From positions 1,315-65,314 of the forward strand of contig JAGAUJ010000012.1 of NCBI GenBank assembly GCA_017620845.1: a stretch of 64,000 bases of DNA, read 5' to 3'. The translations under genes were made by a program, and so were the position numbers. Under the pieces are notes generated by a model. That model did no database searches. It worked only from the letters and a program-made list of their open reading frames with translations, and was not told the DNA's origin. Of the stretch, positions 23,198 through 58,462 are shown piece after piece. This DNA is from Rickettsiales bacterium (GTDB lineage Bacteria > Pseudomonadota > Alphaproteobacteria > Rickettsiales > UBA1997). Each line of letters begins with the position of its first letter. Position 1 is the stretch's first letter.

Positions 23198-26100
23198 TTA
23201 TGTGTCAATATTGGTATTACTATCACTATTAGTTGTTTCATTTTTATTATTACCATCATTATTGATTTCGTTTTTTTTATTCATTTCATTATATCTTTTT
23301 ATCTTATCTTCTTTTTCTACTGCATTATTTCTATTGGCAGTTTCTTTGATTGTGCCAGTTCCTTTTCTTTTTTGATATTGATTTATGGCAGTATTGCCAA
23401 CAATTTTTAAACCTTCCATAGATTTATTTGATATTTTAGCAAAAATTGATGCTGTACCACCTAAAATAGTTTTTAGGTCTGGTATTCCATCTGTTTTTGG
23501 AACACTACTTCCAAATATTGTGCTTGACATTTCGCCTATATAAGAGGTAAATTGATCGAATATAAATATTATTACCAATAGAAACATCATTGATAAAAAT
23601 AAATCAAATATATCTGTTGCACCTTCAAATACGGCTGGGAAACCAGTAAAACCTTCTATAATAAAATCAAATAATGTAGATCCCGAATTATTTGTTGCAT
23701 TTCTAAACATTGATGCACAAATTGGTGCTTCTTGTGATAAATTAATTACTTTTCCTTTTGCATTATTTGTGCACTCATTTATTTTATTCGTCATTTCAGC
23801 ATCATCATTACTATCTGTTATATAATAAAAATTACTTTCAGATATTTTACAAATTTTTCCACAATATACATCTCTTATTGGCTCTCTGGTTCCGTAAAAT
23901 ACAGCATCACCAATAAAATATTTATCAAAAATTAATATAAATAAAGATAAAGACATTATTATGAATAGTGGAGTAAATATACAAGAAAATATTTTTTTAA
24001 TCCAAGAACTAAAAAAACCTTTTGTTTTTTTCAATAAATACATTGGAATCATTATTGGAGATATAAATAATAGTAGTGTTAAAGTTAAAGAATTAAATAT
24101 AAATTGGTAGGCTATTTTAATTGCAAAAAATATTAAAGATAACATAACAAGTATAAAGGGAAGTATCAATATCAATGTAAAACCAAATGATAATATACCA
24201 GATATAAAATAACTTAATATTGGTGGTGCAGTAATATATTCTGTACTAAAACCAAAATACCTGTATAATTTACAATCTAATGTATCAAAAACCGCTAAAT
24301 ATTGTCTATCTCCATAGTTTTGATAATTATTTGCTATTTCATCATGTTTAAAGAAATAACAGCCAGAATATTTACTATTATCATATCCAACATTTTGTCT
24401 ATCGCTGATTGATATATTTATAGCAAAACTTGAAACTGCATTCATTGCCGAGTATATTCCATTAAATACATAAGAAATCCAATTATTGTTCAATGTAAAA
24501 TAAGATACAGTCACAATTGTAAATATAGTTTTTAATACTTCTTCTGAACTAAAACCTTTTTTATATAAAACCATATTAAAACCATATAGAACAACAAATA
24601 TAGCTAATAAAACTTTTATTATAGCACTGAAATATTTTTTTAACGTTTTAAAAGGACTTGGATATTCATTTTCATTTAAATCTTCTCCTTTTTTATATAC
24701 TTCACCGCTTGGACATGTATTATTTTCATCGGCTTGTTCATTACCCAAAACACATCTTGTGTGTCCGGCTTTATTTAATAATAAATTTTTAAATGTTTCA
24801 ACAAAACATTCAATAAATGGTGCGGTAAATAACTTTGTATTTTTTGCATTTAACGGTGTTGTGTAATTCATGAAATTATGTGATGAGCCAACAAAATCCA
24901 TACATGCTTTATCTATATATGGCGTTGAATTTATTGGTTCTGGTTCAATTAAGTCCGGAATTAATACACAATGTCTATCTAACTGACAAAAATTTGCTGG
25001 TTTGTTGTAACATGCAGTTGTTTCTTCTCCATCAAAACATGGCCCAGTACATCTCTTATTACCATCTGCATCAAAAGTGCAATTATTTTCAGTATTTAAT
25101 GCTTGTATTTCATTTGATGCATCTTCAATATATATTTCTTCGTTTCCTTCTTTTAGTTTTACTTTATAGCCGCCCTCATAGGTTTGTGTAAATTGTTTAC
25201 TAGCTTCTTCTGACCCGCCTAAAATCCTAAAATTATAAGGACATAAATTATATGTTTCAACACAATATTTATTTTGATTATATGAAGATTGTCTTATTTT
25301 AAATGTTATTGTATTTGCATCCTCATGAGCGTTAGAGTTATTTGTTGTTATTGCTGAACTTCCAACTATATCATTTTTTACATTTCCTTGTTCATCGCAA
25401 TATGTATTATATTGTGCTTCTATTTCAGTGAGATCAAAAGGATTATCCTCTGAATTTATAGATGTATTAGTTTTTAGTTTTTCTATTTGATTTTTTAAAT
25501 CTGTACATACATTGTCAGAATTACTATTTTCTGTGTTTAATGTATAATCACTCTGTATACTACAATCACCAGTAGAGGCGTCTTTGCTACACATAGTATA
25601 ATATTCTGTTGCTTTTGGATCATTTCTATTTTTATTACTTATACATATCAAATGTTGACTTGCTTCCAGACAACATTTATATGCTTCCATATATTCTGTT
25701 TTACTAGATCCTAAAAATCTGTCGCAAGCAAAATTAGCAGCATCAGTTCCTTTAAAATAGTATAATTGACTTGTTTTATCTATTGTGCCAAGATAATATT
25801 TTCTTTCTGGTCGTGGATCTTTACAGCCAGTATAGGCATATTCCATACCATCATATATGAATTCCCTATACTGTTTATTTGTTGTGCTTGATAAGTTATC
25901 AATAGTGTTAATGTTTTCTATATTGGTACTATTACCAAACAATTTTTTACATGTATCAACATTTTTACTTTGGAAACAATCCTGTAGGGTATATTTGTAT
26001 GAACCAAAAAAGTCTCCTTTTGTCGGAAAATATGCTTTTATATAATTAAAATTTATGTCAGTATTGCTTGTAAAGGCGCCAGATTTGTCTAATTCTTGTT

Positions 26101-51921: not shown

Positions 51922-52356
51922 TTAACATTCTTTAATTTTTTTTCTTAAAATAGTAGTGCTTATATGTTTCGTATATGGAAAATAAACAACTTTTATCCCA
52001 TTTTCATTATACAATTTTTCCAATTTATTCCATTTTTCTGTTCCTTTCCAATCATCGCCCACAAAAATATAATCGGCATTATATTTTTTTAAACTTGGTA
52101 AACCATAATTATCTTTATTTATAGCAACTACCTCATCAACATATTTAATTGACTTAATTATTTCCATTCTTTCTTCCAATGGTATAATTGGCGTTTTATT
52201 TTTGTATTCCTTAATATATTCATCTGTATTTACACCAACGACCAAATAATCACAATATTCTTTGCATTTTTTTAATATATTTAAGTGTCCTATATGAAAT
52301 AAATCATAACAACCACCAGTAAAACCTATTATTTTATCTTTGTTATTATTTTGCAT
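51922..52356 (-). CDS. tagD: Glycerol-3-phosphate cytidylyltransferase (TagD-like)
   Basis: GGCYDLFHIGHLNIL, VGVNTD, VGDDWKG, PYTKHISTT. Confidence 0.85.
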   Translation of the reverse strand: MQNNNKDKIIGFTGGCYDLFHIGHLNILKKCKEYCDYLVVGVNTDEYIKEYKNKTPIIPLEERMEIIKSIKYVDEVVAINKDNYGLPSLKKYNADYIFVGDDWKGTEKWNKLEKLYNENGIKVVYFPYTKHISTTILRKKIKEC

Positions 52357-53620
52357 TTATAATATCCATTAAGTAATTAATAATATTTTCTGAAGCGTTA
52401 GTATTAAATACATCTTTATATTTTTCTAAATATTCTATTCTTATATTTTTCATATAATCATTATTATTTAAAACAACATCTTCTAAACATTTATTTAATT
52501 CACCAATGTTATAAACCTTATAATAACTATTTAAAATATCATTTGCCAAATTAGTTCTACCTTTTGAATCTTTTGAAATTGGAACTATAACTGGATTTTG
52601 TATTGGAAAATATTCTATTAAAAAAGAACCACAATCGGTAATTAAACATTTAGATTGTTTAAATAAATCAAAATAATTTCCAGAATCATAAACCAAACCG
52701 ATTTCTTCCCAATCTTTAAAATATTTATCACATTCTTCTTGTGTTAAAATGCCATTAGAGACAACAGAATATTTAAATCTTGGATGCGGTTTAAATACCC
52801 AATTTAATTCCTTGTGTTTTTTAGCAAATTCTAATATTTCTTTACCATTCCACTCAAAAGTTGCATATCTTAAACCTTCTTTTTCAAAAGAATGGTGCGG
52901 TGCATAAATTATATATTTCTTTTCATATTCTTTATTGTCAAAATAAACATCTAATTTTGGATGACCAGTAATTTTAAAATTAATTTTATTTGATATATTA
53001 TTTATAAAGTTATATTTTTCAGTTTTATTTACTATAAAATATGTATGTAAACATTCTAAAAAATACTTATAATAAGTATTTGATGAGTAATAGGTATTTG
53101 TAATAGCATATGGAATATACATACTTAAAGCAAATTTTGAAGTATTTTTTATATTTTGTTTTTTATTTATTTCCCAAGGTTGCTGATAAAACAATATATC
53201 TATATTAAAAACACTTAAATCTATATATTTATCATCTTTATAAGCCCAATCAACATTTATATTTAGATTTTTAAAAAAATCATAATTTAATTTTAACTCT
53301 TTTTCTCTTCCTTTAATATTTGTAACCAAAACCATTGGTTCAAATATATTACTTTTTTCCAATTTTTCATATAATTGTTGACAGTTCCATTTTTGTCTTT
53401 CACTTACTAAAAAAGCAACCTTTATCTTTTGATTATTTTTTACTTTTTGTTTTATTTTTTTAATTACTTGTGTGTAGTTGTTTTTTATATGTTTACATTC
53501 TATATATTCTACATATTTATTAATATGTTTTCTACATTTTTTTCTCCAACTTTTTATTGGAATAAAAAAACAAATCAATTTTATTATTAATCTAATCATA
53601 TTTTTAATATTTATTACCAA
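52346..53620 (-). CDS. CDP-glycerol:glycerophosphate transferase (TagB/TagF-like)
   Basis: YQQPW, YIPY, TGHPKLD, IIYAPH, FKPHP, LITDCGSF. Confidence 0.82.
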   Translation of the reverse strand: MVINIKNMIRLIIKLICFFIPIKSWRKKCRKHINKYVEYIECKHIKNNYTQVIKKIKQKVKNNQKIKVAFLVSERQKWNCQQLYEKLEKSNIFEPMVLVTNIKGREKELKLNYDFFKNLNINVDWAYKDDKYIDLSVFNIDILFYQQPWEINKKQNIKNTSKFALSMYIPYAITNTYYSSNTYYKYFLECLHTYFIVNKTEKYNFINNISNKINFKITGHPKLDVYFDNKEYEKKYIIYAPHHSFEKEGLRYATFEWNGKEILEFAKKHKELNWVFKPHPRFKYSVVSNGILTQEECDKYFKDWEEIGLVYDSGNYFDLFKQSKCLITDCGSFLIEYFPIQNPVIVPISKDSKGRTNLANDILNSYYKVYNIGELNKCLEDVVLNNNDYMKNIRIEYLEKYKDVFNTNASENIINYLMDIINAK

Positions 53621-54186
53621 ATAAGAAATTTTTTATTTGCTTTTAATTTTTCATAATGTTCTTTATTTCTATATTTAAATACTTTTGCCGGATTGCCACC
53701 TGCTATTGCTAACGGTGGGATTTCGCCGTGAACCACCGCACCGGCCTGTATAATAGCGCCTTCGCCAATTTTTGTTCCAGGTAAAATAGTTACTCTGCTA
53801 CCAATCCAAACACAATCACCAATTTCAATATCTTTGTATATATAATCATTGGATGAATATGGAATATGTTGTCCACCATCATAATTGTGATTTTGTGCAA
53901 TTATTAATAATTCTATTCCGCTGTGAAAATAATTTCCAATTAAAACCTTACCACTACCATGTATTTCACAGCCATTAAATCTACAATAATCTCCAACATA
54001 TGTATTTTTATTTAAAATAGTTTTATCTCCACATCGTAATTTTTTGCCAACATGCGAATTCCTATATGCTCTTTGTGTCCATTCATTATTATCAACAACA
54101 AATTTTATCATAAATTTTTCTCTAACTTTATGTCTTAATTGCTTATTTGGAATAAACCAACAAATGATTCTAACAAAAAATTTCAT
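53614..54186 (-). CDS. Hexapeptide-repeat sugar O-acetyltransferase
   Basis: NHNY, IGDCVWIGSRVTILPGTKIGEGAIIQAGAVV, GGNPAK. Confidence 0.9.
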   Translation of the reverse strand: MKFFVRIICWFIPNKQLRHKVREKFMIKFVVDNNEWTQRAYRNSHVGKKLRCGDKTILNKNTYVGDYCRFNGCEIHGSGKVLIGNYFHSGIELLIIAQNHNYDGGQHIPYSSNDYIYKDIEIGDCVWIGSRVTILPGTKIGEGAIIQAGAVVHGEIPPLAIAGGNPAKVFKYRNKEHYEKLKANKKFLIW

Positions 54187-54200
54187 AATATATCCTCCAT

Positions 54201-55337
54201 TTATTTTATAACATCAATAATACTTATAACTGGAATACTAAACAACTTAATATATTTTTTATTTGCCTTAATTCTAATTCCAAATATTTCTATACAATTA
54301 AACAATCTAACCGAAGTTTTTAATCTATTTTTAACTATTGTTAACAATTTAATTTTACTAAAAATACTAACATAATTATTTGTTGTAACACCAAATTGCC
54401 TTAAATCGCTTACATTATTTATTTTGAACAATTCAATATACATAAACTTATTTGTTAATAAATTGTAATTAAAATTATCTTTTATATATTGTATTGTTTC
54501 ATATAAACTATTTAATAAAATATTATTGTCATATATTTTATACAGTATAGAATAATAAAATATAGAATTTACCAAATCATTAAAATATTTATCTAATATT
54601 TCATTATTCATTTTATGGCCGTAAACATTTAATAAATTTATTCTCATTTTTACCGATTCTAAAAAACCAGTAAATTTATCTTCAATATTGTTTATAATAT
54701 TTGTTGTAGCAGAATTTTTTCTTAATATATAATAATAACAAGATTTTTTATTTTTATCTAATATTACTGTTTTATTTGATTTTAACAATACTTCTAATTC
54801 AAAAGTAGTATCTTCTGCTATTTTAATACCAATTGGAAATTGTATATTATTATCTTTTATAAATTGTCTTCTGTAAATATTAAAACAAAAGTTATAATAT
54901 GTATAAATACCACTTCTATTAATTAATTTTTGTGAATTATTTTTTAATTTTTTAATCTTATAATATTTTGCTTCTACAATATCTGCATCTTCTTTTTTTG
55001 CCTTATTATACAAATTCTCAAAAAAATCCAAATCAACATAATCATCACTATCTACAAAACCTATATATTCACCCTGTGATGCTTCAATACCGTTATTTCT
55101 TGCAACAGAAACTCCTTGATTTTCTTGATCTATTATTTTAATTCTTTTATCCTTTTCTGCATATTGTTTTAATATACTTAAAGAATTGTCCATTGAACCA
55201 TCATTTATACAAATTATTTCTATATTTTGTAATGTTTGATTTATTAAACTATTTAAACATCTTTCTAAATATTGTTCTACATTGTAAACAGGAACAATAA
55301 TTGAAACTGAAATATTACTTTTTTTATCTATTGTCAT
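54201..55337 (-). CDS. GT2 family glycosyltransferase
   Basis: VSIIVPVYNVEQYL, INDGS.D, NQGVSVARN, FVDSDD, AED; ATG 55337 has an AAAGGTGG SD. Confidence 0.93.
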   Translation of the reverse strand: MTIDKKSNISVSIIVPVYNVEQYLERCLNSLINQTLQNIEIICINDGSMDNSLSILKQYAEKDKRIKIIDQENQGVSVARNNGIEASQGEYIGFVDSDDYVDLDFFENLYNKAKKEDADIVEAKYYKIKKLKNNSQKLINRSGIYTYYNFCFNIYRRQFIKDNNIQFPIGIKIAEDTTFELEVLLKSNKTVILDKNKKSCYYYILRKNSATTNIINNIEDKFTGFLESVKMRINLLNVYGHKMNNEILDKYFNDLVNSIFYYSILYKIYDNNILLNSLYETIQYIKDNFNYNLLTNKFMYIELFKINNVSDLRQFGVTTNNYVSIFSKIKLLTIVKNRLKTSVRLFNCIEIFGIRIKANKKYIKLFSIPVISIIDVIK

Positions 55338-55365
55338 TTTGCCACCTTTACATAACTTACTCAAA

Positions 55366-55479
55366 TTAATAAATAGTCTTATACATTAGTATTTTTTTGA
55401 TACTACAAATAACAGCAAACAACAAAGTATTTATTCGTTGTAAAATTATTTTGTTATTACTTTTTAATCTTATAAACAT
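55366..55479 (-). CDS. Putative 37-aa leader peptide/small ORF
   Basis: AGGAG SD 6 nt before ATG; MFIRLKSNNKIILQRINTLLFAVICSIKKILMYKTIY. Confidence 0.4.
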   Translation of the reverse strand: MFIRLKSNNKIILQRINTLLFAVICSIKKILMYKTIY

Positions 55480-55500
55480 CCTAACTCCTATATAAATTGA

Positions 55501-55536
55501 CCTAATGCACCAAAATACACATTTTGGTGCATTAGG
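55501..55536. repeat. Left recombination site (IRL) of invertible switch
   Basis: CCTAATGCACCAAAAT-ACAC-ATTTTGGTGCATTAGG palindrome; core 55505-55532. Confidence 0.9.
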
Positions 55537-55678
55537 ACAGCAGAGATACAATATTAGATTATTTTACAAATAATAAAAATTAGAGGATTTATTAATTTAT
55601 GCACCGTATTGACTTTAAAAAAATCTTTATTTATCATAATTATTAGAGTTATGCACCAAAATGTGTATTTTGGTGCAT
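55505..55678. mobile_element. Putative invertible promoter segment (phase-variation switch)
   Basis: 28-bp perfect inverted repeats with asymmetric spacer flank a sigma70-like promoter; tyrosine recombinase 0.7 kb away. Confidence 0.8.
55609..55637 (+). promoter_or_regulatory. sigma70-like promoter inside the invertible segment, facing away from the polysaccharide operon
   Basis: TTGACT-17 nt-TATCAT. Confidence 0.7.
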
Positions 55679-55680
55679 AA
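55649..55680. repeat. Right recombination site (IRR) of invertible switch
   Basis: TTATGCACCAAAAT-GTGT-ATTTTGGTGCATAA; core 55651-55678 is the exact reverse complement of 55505-55532. Confidence 0.9.
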
Positions 55681-55810
55681 AAAACGGTGCATAAATTATA
55701 AATATTATTATTTTATTTTTTTATATTGGAAATGTATTAAAAAGTTTTAAAATTTTTTGAAAATTAGTATATTTTTATGTCTGTCTTATGTAAATAAATA
55801 ATTACAACTA

Positions 55811-56080
55811 TTAATTCTTATAAACTTCTGCTCTATGTCCTATATCTATAACTAATATAAGTAATATGTCATCTTCTATACTACAAATTATTCTGTAATC
55901 ACCAACTCTATATCTCCATAATCCACTCATATTTGCTAAAAGTGGTTTGCCAAATGATTTGGGGTTAGTATTAGAATTAACAATTTTATGAAGATATTTT
56001 AATATTTGTGTTTCTGTATTTTTATCAAGTTTTTTTAAAAATTTTCTTGGTTTATCTTCAAATTTAATCTGCCAAATCAA
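55811..56080 (-). CDS. relE: RelE/StbE-family type II toxin
   Basis: LKKLD, NPKSFGKPL, LWRYRVGDYRIIC.I, IGHR.EVY. Confidence 0.93.
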   Translation of the reverse strand: MIWQIKFEDKPRKFLKKLDKNTETQILKYLHKIVNSNTNPKSFGKPLLANMSGLWRYRVGDYRIICSIEDDILLILVIDIGHRAEVYKN

Positions 56081-56300
56081 TTTTATCCTCCATTAATATT
56101 TCTTCAAATGAAACTGATTTTTTGCCATTTTTTAACCATCTGTTATATGCTTCTTCGCCAATTTTAGCATCATATAAATCTTCTAAATATTCTTGTAGGG
56201 CAATTCTTACAAGAGAACTTTTACTTCTATCTTCTTCTTTTGAAAATCTTGTAAGTAAATTATTTAATTCTGTTGGAATTTTAATTGTTATTGTTTCCAT
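56064..56300 (-). CDS. Ribbon-helix-helix antitoxin (RelB/DUF6290-like)
   Basis: TITIKIP...RSKSSLVRIALQEYLEDLYD; overlaps the toxin start. Confidence 0.88.
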   Translation of the reverse strand: METITIKIPTELNNLLTRFSKEEDRSKSSLVRIALQEYLEDLYDAKIGEEAYNRWLKNGKKSVSFEEILMEDKIDLAD

Positions 56301-56363
56301 AATATTCTGTATTATTTAGTATTACTTTATAATATAATATAATATTTTTTATTGTCAATAAAA

Positions 56364-56912
56364 TTATAACTCAAAATTCATATAAGTTTTATTAATATCT
56401 TCTTGTGTTATGCCTATGTATCTTAAAGTAATATCTTGTGATGAGTGGTTAAATATTTTTTGTAGCATTACAACATCGTTAAATTGTTTATAGTGGTGTA
56501 ATCCAAATGTTTTTCTCATTGTATGTGTTCCAATGTTGCTTTTTATACCACAAATTTTACAGGCTTCGTTTAAAAATCTATATACTTGTGATCTTGAAAG
56601 TCGTTTGCCTTTTTTACCCATAAATAATGGTTTAGTTGTGTCTTTTTTGTTTTGTGTGTATAAAAATAGTTCTTGTTGTAATTTTTTGTTTAATGGAAAA
56701 TGTTTTGTTTTTTGGGTTTTTTGTTCTGTTATTATTATGTGATCTTTGTTTTTTATGTCTTGTATGTTTAATGAAAGTATGTCGCTTACTCTTAAACCGG
56801 AGTTAATACCTAAAATAAAGATTATGTAGTTTCGGGTGTTTGTTTGTTTTAAGTATTGTTGTATTTTGATAATGTCCTCTTTGTTGTAGAGTGGTTCTGT
56901 TGTTTTTTGCAT
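56364..56912 (-). CDS. Minimal (catalytic-domain-only) tyrosine recombinase, likely invertase
   Basis: GLRVSD (R), EQKT (K), HTMRKT (HxxR), FNHSS (H), TLRYIG (Y); 182 aa. Confidence 0.92.
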   Translation of the reverse strand: MQKTTEPLYNKEDIIKIQQYLKQTNTRNYIIFILGINSGLRVSDILSLNIQDIKNKDHIIITEQKTQKTKHFPLNKKLQQELFLYTQNKKDTTKPLFMGKKGKRLSRSQVYRFLNEACKICGIKSNIGTHTMRKTFGLHHYKQFNDVVMLQKIFNHSSQDITLRYIGITQEDINKTYMNFEL

Positions 56913-57091
56913 GATTTTTGTTTGGTTGTTTGTTGTTATTAGTATATTGGTTTTTTAAAAGTGGGAGTAGTTGTTTGTGAAATATTGATATATTATTGTT
57001 TAATTTTGTGAATATATTTGTTGCATAAAAGGAATTAATTAAGTTAATTAATATGATTTATTATTATAATTAATTTATTTGAAAATACTAT

Positions 57092-58462
57092 TTACAACAG
57101 TAACACGGTTGCTAACTGTAAAATTAACAAAAATGTTAATGAATCAATTGTAGTTGTTATAAAAGAACCGGAACTAACCGCTGGATCAAACTTTAATTTA
57201 TTTAATATTAATGGAACTATACTTGCTATAAATCCACCTAAAACAAGCACAAATACTAAAGTTAAGAAAAATATAAATGCTAACATAAAATTATGTTTCC
57301 ATATATAAACACCAGCACCACCAATTAAACCAATTCCAATACCATTTAATAAGCCAGTAAATGTTTCTTTACAAATAACTTTACCTATACTCATGTTATT
57401 AAATTTTCGTCCAGCAAGATTTCTAACCATAACGGTTAAAGTTTGTGTTCCAGCAATTCCACCAATACCAGATGCCAAGGGCATTAAAGCTGACAAAACA
57501 ACAAGTTTTTCAACAGTGCCAGAGAAACAACTAATAACTGCACTACTTATTGAGGTTGCTAATATTGTAATTACTAACCAAGGAAACCTATTTTTTGCAG
57601 ATTTAAAAATATTTGAATATGTATCATCTTCCGAAACATTACCCATTAACAATAAATCTTCTCCGGATTCTTCTTGCATAATATCTACCATATCTGCTAA
57701 ATATAACATACCAACTAAAACACCATTGTCGTTTACAACAGGTGCAGATCTTAAATTATATTTATTAAATAAAAGTGCTGCTTCTTCTTGATTCATATCG
57801 CATCTTAATATTTTAAGATCTTCAACATCTCTCATAATTCTTGATATTTTTTTGTTTGATTCAGATCTTAAAATTTGTCCGGCAGATATTGTTGAAACTG
57901 GTCTATAATATTCATCAACAACAACTATTTCAGAAAATTCACCAGTTAAACTTCTGTTTTTTTGCATATATTTTATAACTTCTTCAACAGTCCAGTCTTT
58001 TGGGACTGCGGTATATTCTTTTGAACCAATCAAACGACCAACACTATCTTCTGGGTATGATAAAGATTCTTCAATTAATTCTTTTTTGGATTTTAATTTT
58101 GTTTCTTCTATAATTTCTTTTACAAAATCAGTATCTTCCATTCCTTCTAAAATATATACAACATCATCAACGTTTAATTTTGATAATATGTTAACCAAAT
58201 TATCCCTTTGTATTAATAGTATGATTTCGTTTCTTAAATCATCTTGTAATTCAAGTAATACTTCTGGATCAAATTGTGAACCCAATATGTCAATTAATTC
58301 TATTCTTTCATTTTTGTTTAAACAACCAATTAAGTCTGCTTGATCGGCAGGGTGTAGGTCTGGCACTATTTTTTTGATTTGTGTTTTTAAGTTTAATTCT
58401 AATGCATTTTTTATTCTTTCTGTAAGACTTCCAGATATACCATAATTTATACTTTTTTCCAC
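57092..58462 (-). CDS. mgtE: Magnesium transporter MgtE
   Basis: LHPADQAD, YPEDSVGRL, CBS pair, RFPWL, GGIAGTQ, DPAVSSG.FITT..D. Confidence 0.95.
   Translation of the reverse strand: MEKSINYGISGSLTERIKNALELNLKTQIKKIVPDLHPADQADLIGCLNKNERIELIDILGSQFDPEVLLELQDDLRNEIILLIQRDNLVNILSKLNVDDVVYILEGMEDTDFVKEIIEETKLKSKKELIEESLSYPEDSVGRLIGSKEYTAVPKDWTVEEVIKYMQKNRSLTGEFSEIVVVDEYYRPVSTISAGQILRSESNKKISRIMRDVEDLKILRCDMNQEEAALLFNKYNLRSAPVVNDNGVLVGMLYLADMVDIMQEESGEDLLLMGNVSEDDTYSNIFKSAKNRFPWLVITILATSISSAVISCFSGTVEKLVVLSALMPLASGIGGIAGTQTLTVMVRNLAGRKFNNMSIGKVICKETFTGLLNGIGIGLIGGAGVYIWKHNFMLAFIFFLTLVFVLVLGGFIASIVPLILNKLKFDPAVSSGSFITTTIDSLTFLLILQLATVLLL

Follow-up and report, generated by a model that had tools for sequence, protein, structure and literature searches.

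Organization of the locus

The window analysed here is a 64,000-nucleotide stretch of a Rickettsiales bacterium genome (contig JAGAUJ010000012.1 of assembly GCA_017620845.1). Between positions 51922 and 56912, it holds a minus-strand operon for a putative surface glycan, a toxin-antitoxin gene pair, and a gene for a short tyrosine recombinase. Next to the operon lies a putative promoter switch, which consists of two inverted recombination sites and a promoter-bearing segment between them. The switch and its recombinase gene comprise the following features.

55505–55532, unstranded: left arm of the inverted repeat and target-side recombination site (IRL), core ACAC
55533–55650, unstranded: predicted invertible segment of 118 bp between the two sites
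55599–55607, unstranded: inner half-site ATGCACCGT, ending 1 nt short of the -35 hexamer
55609–55637, plus strand: sigma-70-type promoter TTGACT-17-TATCAT, 10 of 12 consensus matches, inside the segment
55651–55678, unstranded: right arm and recombinase-side recombination site (IRR), core GTGT, reverse complement of IRL
55684–55692, unstranded: outer half-site ACGGTGCAT, 5 nt past IRR, a position shared by all three switch copies
56364–56912, minus strand: tyrosine recombinase of 182 aa, catalytic domain only (Pfam PF00589, E = 2.5e-25, residues 12–168)

The left arm reads ATGCACCAAAATACACATTTTGGTGCAT, and the right arm is its exact reverse complement, so that the two 28-nt arms are 100% complementary with 118 nt between them. 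This is the longest perfect inverted repeat in the window (gap 20–400), and the runner-up has 16 nt. The longest arm in 100 first-order Markov simulations of the window was 19 nt. Since the real arm exceeds all 100 simulations, the repeat is not a chance occurrence, and the exact 28-nt repeat around 118 bp described in the initial annotation is confirmed. The window switch has the paired inverted repeats around a short intergenic segment that characterize an inverton. Each site is itself palindromic: a 4-nt asymmetric core (ACAC in the left site and GTGT in the right) is framed by 12-nt arms, and the two sites differ solely by core orientation. The layout of 11-nt arms around a 6-nt spacer proposed earlier holds in this refined form, in which the outer T/A pair of the spacer belongs to the arms. 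The inner and outer half-sites pair as an 18-nt inverted repeat with 94% complementarity.

The -10 hexamer of TTGACT-17-TATCAT ends 13 nt before IRR, and the promoter points to IRR and the recombinase, away from the target operon. Our scan agrees with the initial annotation on this plus-strand promoter and its direction. The description of the locus as being in the OFF state also stands, with the conserved promoter directed away from the operon in the assembled orientation. Consensus-like matches occur at chance frequency in this DNA; support for the predicted promoter comes not from its consensus match but from its conservation in all three genome copies and from counterparts in the cassettes of relatives, where TTGACA-17-TATnnT lies at the corresponding place. 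The promoter of copy C15 is identical to that of the window, and copy C23 has a 16-nt spacer and TATTAT. From these sequences we infer that the cassette promoter is active and that the present orientation silences the operons. No intrinsic terminator was predicted in either of the two promoter-scanned regions.

A Xer-like recombinase reduced to the catalytic domain

The recombinase gene is located 686 bp from the near site, and all 24 aligned family members share R41, K68, H130, R133, H156, and Y165. These residues represent the R-K-H-R-H/W-Y set of the tyrosine recombinase superfamily. The earlier identification of a 182-aa tyrosine recombinase with an intact catalytic set about 0.7 kb away is thus borne out. 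Pfam gave PF00589 and a weak archaeal integrase model alone, and no serine-invertase catalytic domain.

Among the NCBIfam models, XerA scored 96.5 bits (cut-off 220), and XerD and XerC scored 84 bits each (cut-offs 330 and 335). The Xer models aligned to the recombinase by their C-terminal part alone. Of the core-binding and catalytic domains that define the Xer family together with its cut-offs, only the catalytic domain is present. The FimB/FimE-type models NF007370 and NF007371 gave 49.8 and 50.9 bits against cut-offs of 221 and 222. The enzyme had been likened to FimB and FimE in size, and it does belong to this size class (~200 aa, catalytic domain alone); however, it does not pass the FimB/FimE model cut-offs, and the Xer models score higher. 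By sequence, the closest solved structures are XerC-like 4a8e, XerA 5hxy, and XerH 5jjv. The Xer-like character of the catalytic domain is in keeping with the dif-like sites, which have TGTGTA or TGTATA at the center. The protein is, as judged from its sequence, a Xer-like, catalytic-domain-only recombinase that is predicted to be active.

This 182-aa recombinase is the sole intact copy in the genome, which also encodes full-length XerC-like (297 aa) and XerD-like (330 aa) proteins. Since these two genes are separate, chromosome dimer resolution is covered by other genes. We propose the 182-aa recombinase as the invertase of all three switches described below.

Three copies of the switch in one genome

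In the genome (1.02 Mb, 29 contigs), the 28-nt site pattern occurs at six places, which form three inverted pairs with site starts 145–146 bp apart.

C18 (the window): sites starting at 55505 and 55651
C15: sites starting at 25146 and 25292
C23: sites starting at 53317 and 53462

The next-best matches to the site in a fuzzy genome search carry 6 substitutions. Instead of the single dif per replicon of the Xer/dif system, six sites in three inverted pairs are found ahead of operons. When the three copies are aligned, the mean column identity is 89%. Both sites, the promoter, both half-sites, and a ribosome-binding site past the target-side site are conserved, and the right half of the cassette is near-invariant while the left half is variable. 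The outer half-site 9-mer ACGGTGCAT occurs seven times in the genome, and six of these occurrences fall within the three switches. In all three copies, the order is outer half-site, site, promoter cassette, site, ribosome-binding site, and a gene reading away. The polarity is also the same in all three, with the promoter opposite to the target gene (OFF).

The core of C23 is ATAC/GTAT, and the change is present on both partner sites. In tyrosine recombinase systems such as Cre/loxP and Xer/dif, opposed core orientation dictates inversion, and the exchanged region needs homology. The matching cores within pairs and the distinct core of C23 fit this need.

The homologous AAGGAG-ATG of the C15 copy begins a mod gene. 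The target at C15 is a Type III mod-res pair, a Mod methyltransferase gene followed by a Res helicase-nuclease gene (PADLOC MTase_III 6.3e-75 and REase_III 2.2e-23; Pfam N6_N4_Mtase and ResIII). The targets at C23 (L010 2743–9284, minus strand) encode a 761-aa protein with an Eco57I-type methylase domain, a 251-aa protein without a family, a 159-aa methylase fragment, a 777-aa ResIII/SNF2 helicase, and a zeta-toxin-like kinase. PADLOC assigned no system to the C23 gene set as a whole; its gene content suggests a second target resembling a restriction-modification system. The initial annotation interpreted the element as a switch for a capsule or teichoic-like glycan. A glycan operon is indeed targeted in the window, but this description is too narrow, because two of the three copies front restriction-modification genes.

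A relic of the recombinase C-terminus lies beside the C15 switch (C15:25033–25113, L009 8034–8114), with 59% identity over residues 156–182 and 2 stops. A Type I hsdR gene is found 1.7 kb further upstream of this relic. Together with the Type III switch, hsdR near the relic marks the region as a defence island.

Exact cassette inversion at a homologous locus

A protein search with the recombinase returned 2214 proteins at E ≤ 1e-5. The 120 best of these are ~180–230 aa long and 55–62% identical, except for the window's own cluster P0001 (98%). Relatives of the recombinase are encoded in 543 of 600 candidate stretches from species-representative genomes; 80 of these loci were kept, and 72 of the 80 have at least 300 nt of downstream flank. 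By record title, 52 of the 80 kept loci come from Gastranaerophilales, Gastranaerophilaceae, Melainabacteria, Vampirovibrio, or Cyanobacteriota, and the other titles include Muribaculaceae (4) and a Helicobacter species (1).

Inverted repeats were searched for with 20-nt arms and at most 2 mismatches. At 18 of the 72 loci, such a repeat begins 1–96 nt past the recombinase stop codon, with 109–181 nt between the arms; one of the 18, L025, looks tRNA-derived. The layout of recombinase, site, promoter cassette, site, and target gene thus recurs beside homologous recombinases. At 12 of the 18 loci, one site has a strong promoter (score at least 9.5 of 12) at a distance of 13–27 nt, and this promoter faces the recombinase at 10 loci and the target at two (L052 and L060). 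In ten relatives, the products of the first genes past the switch include restriction-modification and helicase proteins (a Type ISP enzyme, HsdS, an MmeI-like methylase, and a PLD-SNF2 helicase), a surface protein with Chlamydia-type Pmp repeats, a LuxR-type regulator, and a cytidylyltransferase; two are without a family. By these families, the targets are typical phase-variable cargo.

Two of the relatives' loci, L050 and L052, come from two genome bins and are 100% identical over flanks of 2586 and 3792 nt. Their 195-nt site-to-site segments match at 100% in reverse complement only. In the interior, 153 of 153 positions match in reverse complement and 46 of 153 directly. Accordingly placed, TTGACA-17-TATATT faces the PLD-SNF2 gene in L052 and the recombinase in L050. 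This exact inversion of the cassette indicates that the recombinase family does flip DNA. Related genomes had been suggested as a place to look for the flipped orientation, and these two show an exact 195-nt inversion at a homologous locus. Both genomes contain one such switch each, so the relation of one enzyme to three switches is special to the present genome.

The promoter directed away from the operon in C18, the conserved layout of the family, and the inversion between L050 and L052 support the interpretation given in the initial annotation. We consider it highly probable that the element is a site-specific DNA inversion switch (inverton) with a promoter and that one recombinase serves three loci.

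Relatives of the recombinase are also found on plasmids (1226 records, 45–49% identical over the full length), mostly of Enterococcus, Bacillus, and Clostridium, where they are annotated merely as 'site-specific integrase'. In two of three inspected plasmids, a single palindrome is located downstream of the recombinase-relative gene. In a Caldicellulosiruptor plasmid, a 41-nt perfect palindrome (L112 3075–3115) lies 32 nt past the gene and may be a single resolution site. As a speculation, the recombinase family may descend from small plasmid resolution enzymes of Firmicutes.

The prevalence of such plasmid relatives, together with the near-identity of the three genomic copies, the dif-like 11-6-11 sites with central TGTGTA or TGTATA, and the Xer-like catalytic domain, is what would be expected if the elements were mobile or Xer-mobilised modules, similar to miniature inverted-repeat transposable elements or plasmid dif modules, with copies arising from transposition and not from regulation. 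The recombinase would in that case serve to move or resolve DNA and not to invert a promoter. We consider this origin very improbable. The sites are not the ends of an element, since the homology among the copies continues past both of them and takes in the outer half-site at one end and the ribosome-binding site at the other. In addition, each copy is situated 5' of an operon with the same polarity, the paired sites are inverted and would give inversion and not excision, and exact inversion is seen at a homologous locus. These features favor the inversion switch.

Orientation in metagenomes and points against inversion

The window stretch is present in 20 runs from 12 studies of animal, mostly ruminant, gut metagenomes. 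Four runs (X1, X8, X9, and X10) were compared as Logan contigs, which are built from a k = 31 graph and drop minority forms. The recombinase-side site is bridged in the reference orientation in X1 (55587–57713), X8 (55593–55711), and X9 (55505–55706 and on across a joint), and no listed contig of X10 bridges it. The target-side site is not bridged with 31 nt on both sides by any listed contig of the four runs, because the C15 copy shares sequence with it and breaks the k = 31 graph. No strand-changing joint was found among the 15 of 40 joints listed. Contig ends at 55532 and within 55587–55616 were considered as a sign of two orientations and were dropped, since C15 shares the 30-mer at the target-side site and the conserved right half of the cassette, which breaks the graph in any case. 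In run X1, the depth is 3.2 on the contig bearing the window-type left half of the cassette, 6.2 on the C15-type contig, and 8.9 and 9.5 on the unique flanks. This gap may reflect a strain mixture, cassette exchange between loci, or depth noise of short contigs.

Several observations weigh against an active inversion switch with a functional promoter. The flipped form was found at none of the three copies, either in the assembly or in the listed contigs of the four runs, in which minority forms are invisible. By the repeat criterion used, 54 of the 72 relatives' loci have no inverted repeat; several of them show the same layout by eye with one site degenerate. The recombinase is without a core-binding domain. 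Promoter-like matches are not enriched at 55250–56000 (6 found vs. a shuffle mean of 7.6), and the DNA around the promoter has 21–26% G+C, in which consensus matches arise at chance frequency. The initial annotation stated that no equivalent promoter faces the operon; this statement fails, since TTTACA-17-TATACT on the minus strand (55794–55766) also matches 10 of 12 positions and faces the operon. It sits outside the switch, within a stretch missing from some strains. Finally, restriction that is re-activated in unmethylated cells could be harmful; in Type III systems, such re-activation should be tolerable.

The uniform orientation would also fit switches that are fossils in this host, that is, acquired elements that once inverted and are now locked one way, with operons constitutively expressed or silent. 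All three copies have the same orientation, contigs from different studies agree on it, one recombinase copy has already decayed to the C15 relic, and a toxin-antitoxin insertion now separates the enzyme gene from the switch. However, all six 28-nt sites are perfect with identical arms, the core change of C23 is matched on both partners, and the recombinase is full-length with every catalytic residue kept. The relatives are biased 10:2 to the same orientation yet demonstrably flip, so uniform OFF is expected of a biased but live switch. We therefore regard fossil switches as improbable and live, biased inversion as the better explanation.

A metagenome scan yielded 9 contigs with the same 28-nt palindrome in a different context of higher G+C. 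In three of them (L013 9119–9588, L016 5947–6416, and L014 2277–2759), the palindrome forms inverted pairs 442–455 bp apart in DNA of 32–35% G+C. The interiors of these pairs are rich in G+C hairpins, and in L013 the pair lies just upstream of a GTPase gene. The other six contigs carry one copy. No recombinase homologue was present in any of the 9 contigs (stretches examined), and no relevant Rfam family was found.

Single, intergenic copies of the 28-mer in six of nine contigs that have no recombinase in the examined stretches recall operators. If the palindromes were operators of a regulator, with two per promoter for looping and an unrelated recombinase nearby, their perfectly palindromic arms and the half-site abutting the -35 hexamer would also be explained. 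On the other hand, the cores of a pair are reverse complements instead of being identical, and they co-vary. The site sequence shifts with the recombinase across relatives, in which the first site follows the stop codon at 1–96 nt, and inversion is seen between such sites. Operators are consequently the least credible of the explanations considered, with a very small probability, and recombination sites remain our preferred assignment.

Proposed mechanism of the inversion switch

In the proposed mechanism, recombinase dimers would bind each 28-bp dif-like palindromic site, and the opposed asymmetric cores would cause the 118-bp segment to be inverted and not excised. This recombinase presumably flips these sites. 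In the present state, the promoter would fire toward the recombinase gene and the target would be OFF. After inversion, transcription from the promoter would cross the target-side site, pass the conserved ribosome-binding site, and enter the operon. The ON transcript would start ~6–8 nt past TATCAT and contain the site as a 12-bp hairpin in its 5' leader, followed by the ribosome-binding site and the target gene.

The recombinase would act in trans on the C15 (Type III mod-res) and C23 (restriction-modification-like) switches, so that one enzyme may phase-vary a surface glycan and two DNA-modification or defence systems. The distinct core of C23 would limit recombination between loci, and C18 and C15, which have the same core, could recombine in principle. 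We hypothesize that the promoter in the OFF state runs antisense into the recombinase gene, and here also into the toxin-antitoxin genes, which would lower the amount of enzyme and bias the switch toward OFF. This OFF bias is in line with the counts of 10:2 in the relatives and 3:0 in the copies.

Target operon and neighboring genes

The genes between the switch and the end of the operon, and those between the switch and the recombinase gene, are as follows.

55366–55489, minus strand: Shine-Dalgarno sequence AGGAG (55489–55485) and open reading frame (ORF) of 37 codons (55479–55366), directly behind IRL
54201–55337, minus strand: family-2 glycosyltransferase (GT2), first large gene of the operon (Pfam Glycos_transf_2, 2.7e-41)
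53614–54186, minus strand: hexapeptide-repeat acyltransferase (Pfam Hexapep, 2.9e-11)
52346–53620, minus strand: candidate TagF/TagB-like CDP-glycerol glycerophosphotransferase, 424 aa (ESM Atlas)
51922–52356, minus strand: cytidylyltransferase, 144 aa, last gene of the operon (Pfam CTP_transf_like, 2.1e-27)
55811–56080, minus strand: ParE-like toxin (Pfam ParE_toxin, 1.3e-13)
56064–56300, minus strand: ribbon-helix-helix antitoxin (DUF6290/RHH_1)

The 37-codon ORF (MFIRLKSNN...) begins 5 nt after AGGAG, at the place where the C15 copy starts mod; it may encode a leader peptide or be what is left of an earlier target gene. The start ATG of GT2 is at 55337, with AAGGTGG ahead of it.

The 424-aa ORF has no Pfam match even at E = 10 and none in NCBIfam, and PF04464 is accordingly not recognized in it. 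In the ESM Atlas, 29 of 30 feature matches are PF04464-type clusters (score 0.98), with a structural TM of 0.85. It is thus a candidate CDP-glycerol glycerophosphotransferase by language-model features and predicted fold alone. The cytidylyltransferase scored 90 bits on the glycerol-3-phosphate model TIGR01518 (cut-off 165) and 91 bits on TIGR02199, the rfaE domain II model (cut-off 181). Since the scores for glycerol-3-phosphate and heptose-1-phosphate are nearly equal, the enzyme is either TagD-like or RfaE-domain-II-like. Of the operon functions assigned earlier, GT2, the acyltransferase (of the hexapeptide type), and a cytidylyltransferase hold, the last as a TagD-like candidate; the TagF-like assignment is found in the ESM Atlas and not in Pfam. 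A glycerol-phosphate glycan is a plausible product of the operon on this gene content.

The toxin-antitoxin pair (55811–56300) is a passenger insertion between the recombinase and the switch. Metagenome contigs of runs X9 and X10 fuse 55706 to 56363, omitting 656 bases with the pair, which indicates that strains without it exist. In such strains, the recombinase gene is directly adjacent to the switch, and its stop codon adjoins the outer half-site, as in the relatives and the C15 relic. A copy of the pair with 72% identity is found elsewhere in a genome of the same genus (G317:C11).

Host range, origin, and significance

The host is a ruminant-gut alphaproteobacterium with a small genome. Among the named homologues of the adjacent MgtE, the closest is from 'Rickettsiales bacterium' (48% identity), and the others are alphaproteobacterial (~35%). 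This agrees with the earlier view of a Rickettsiales-like host, for which the support is one gene. In 30 further genomes of the family, which include two of the genus, the recombinase was not found, and none of 300 other genomes of the same order has the 28-nt site pattern. A DNA search in 4 relatives found no counterpart of the KdsB-MgtE interval. Since the recombinase, the site pattern, and the KdsB-MgtE DNA are missing from relatives, the system is accessory in this host. It was probably acquired laterally, and the relatives of the recombinase point to gut Melainabacteria-type bacteria as the likely donor pool. The system would be a clear case of transfer and re-use: it is present in an unrelated alphaproteobacterium of small genome size and has been multiplied to three operons there.

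A possible, if doubtful, extension is that the recombinase gene and the whole switch, from the outer half-site to the ribosome-binding site, form a portable plug-in module that moved from gut Melainabacteria-type bacteria into this alphaproteobacterium of reduced genome and was copied before three operons. A single Xer-derived recombinase without a core-binding domain would then jointly phase-vary the glycan and both restriction-modification systems, as a promoter-inversion phasevarion. It would have an antisense-driven OFF bias, and the family might go back to plasmid resolution recombinases of Firmicutes.

In gut bacteria, surface and epigenetic heterogeneity stems to a large extent from promoter inversion, which has been worked out for few enzyme families. 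The present analysis ties a compact family of ~180-aa recombinases to a recognizable switch architecture in Melainabacteria. The enzyme has 182 aa, each site 28 bp, and the cassette 118 bp; at this size, the system seems tractable for studying how dif-like sites are recognized without a core-binding domain. If the proposed mechanism is true, one enzyme would switch both the surface glycan and the restriction-modification state, a point of relevance to phage pressure in the rumen and hindgut.

Comparison with known systems

In our literature search, no report of phase variation in Gastranaerophilales was found, and none joining Rickettsiales, invertible, phase variation, and recombinase; the supplementary tables of inverton surveys were outside this search. 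The terms 'invertible promoter' and Melainabacteria led to hsdS inversion only. The initial annotation held that invertible capsule promoters are known mainly from Bacteroidota. The taxonomic surprise is smaller than this suggests, since invertible promoters are now described from many phyla, Proteobacteria included (PMC11602134). The T1 antigen locus of Salmonella is reported as a phase-variable surface polysaccharide operon in a proteobacterium (PMC11294581), and the window operon would resemble it in this respect.

Phase-variable Type III mod genes ('phasevarions') switch by repeat-tract slippage in mod. Inverting hsdS loci shuffle hsdS coding segments, with one Melainabacteria case among them (PMC7672463). 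The present system would share with phasevarions and hsdS inversion the stochastic ON/OFF or specificity switching of restriction-modification; unlike in both, the invertible part here is a promoter cassette ahead of mod-res.

The multi-switch recombinase of Clostridioides difficile is presumably RecV. In that species, one tyrosine recombinase is reported to serve several invertible regulatory segments (PMC5386303). A single tyrosine recombinase acting in trans on scattered invertible segments would be common to both systems. They differ in the size class of the recombinase and in the sites, and the targets in C. difficile are flagella, toxin regulation, and cell-wall proteins.

In Bacteroides fragilis, the serine recombinase Mpi is a global invertase of many promoters, including those of surface polysaccharide loci. 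One invertase, surface polysaccharide promoters, and a gut bacterium are the features in common. The window encodes a tyrosine recombinase instead, in a host of another phylum. The fimS switch of Escherichia coli is inverted by the short tyrosine recombinases FimB and FimE and has 9-bp repeats and a segment of ~314 bp. Like fimS, the window switch has a short, co-directional recombinase without a core-binding domain just upstream, a segment with a predicted promoter for a surface structure, extra half-sites beside the repeats, and an OFF bias. In contrast to fimS, the window enzyme scores higher on Xer than on FimB/FimE models, the sites are 28-bp dif-like palindromes, the segment has 118 bp, and three loci are involved.

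The Xer/dif systems (XerC/D, XerA, and XerH) provide the best matches to the catalytic domain, and their 11-6-11 sites with central TGTATA or TGTGTA resemble those of the window. The window enzyme differs in lacking a core-binding domain, with matches to model positions 97–263 of 263 alone. In place of one dif there are six sites, arranged as inverted pairs, and the host has XerC-like and XerD-like genes of its own. The switch kind itself is already known, and the enzyme family and the host are new. New here are an uncharacterised recombinase family, a clean natural flip in its relatives, a three-locus regulon with restriction-modification, and evidence for lateral acquisition.

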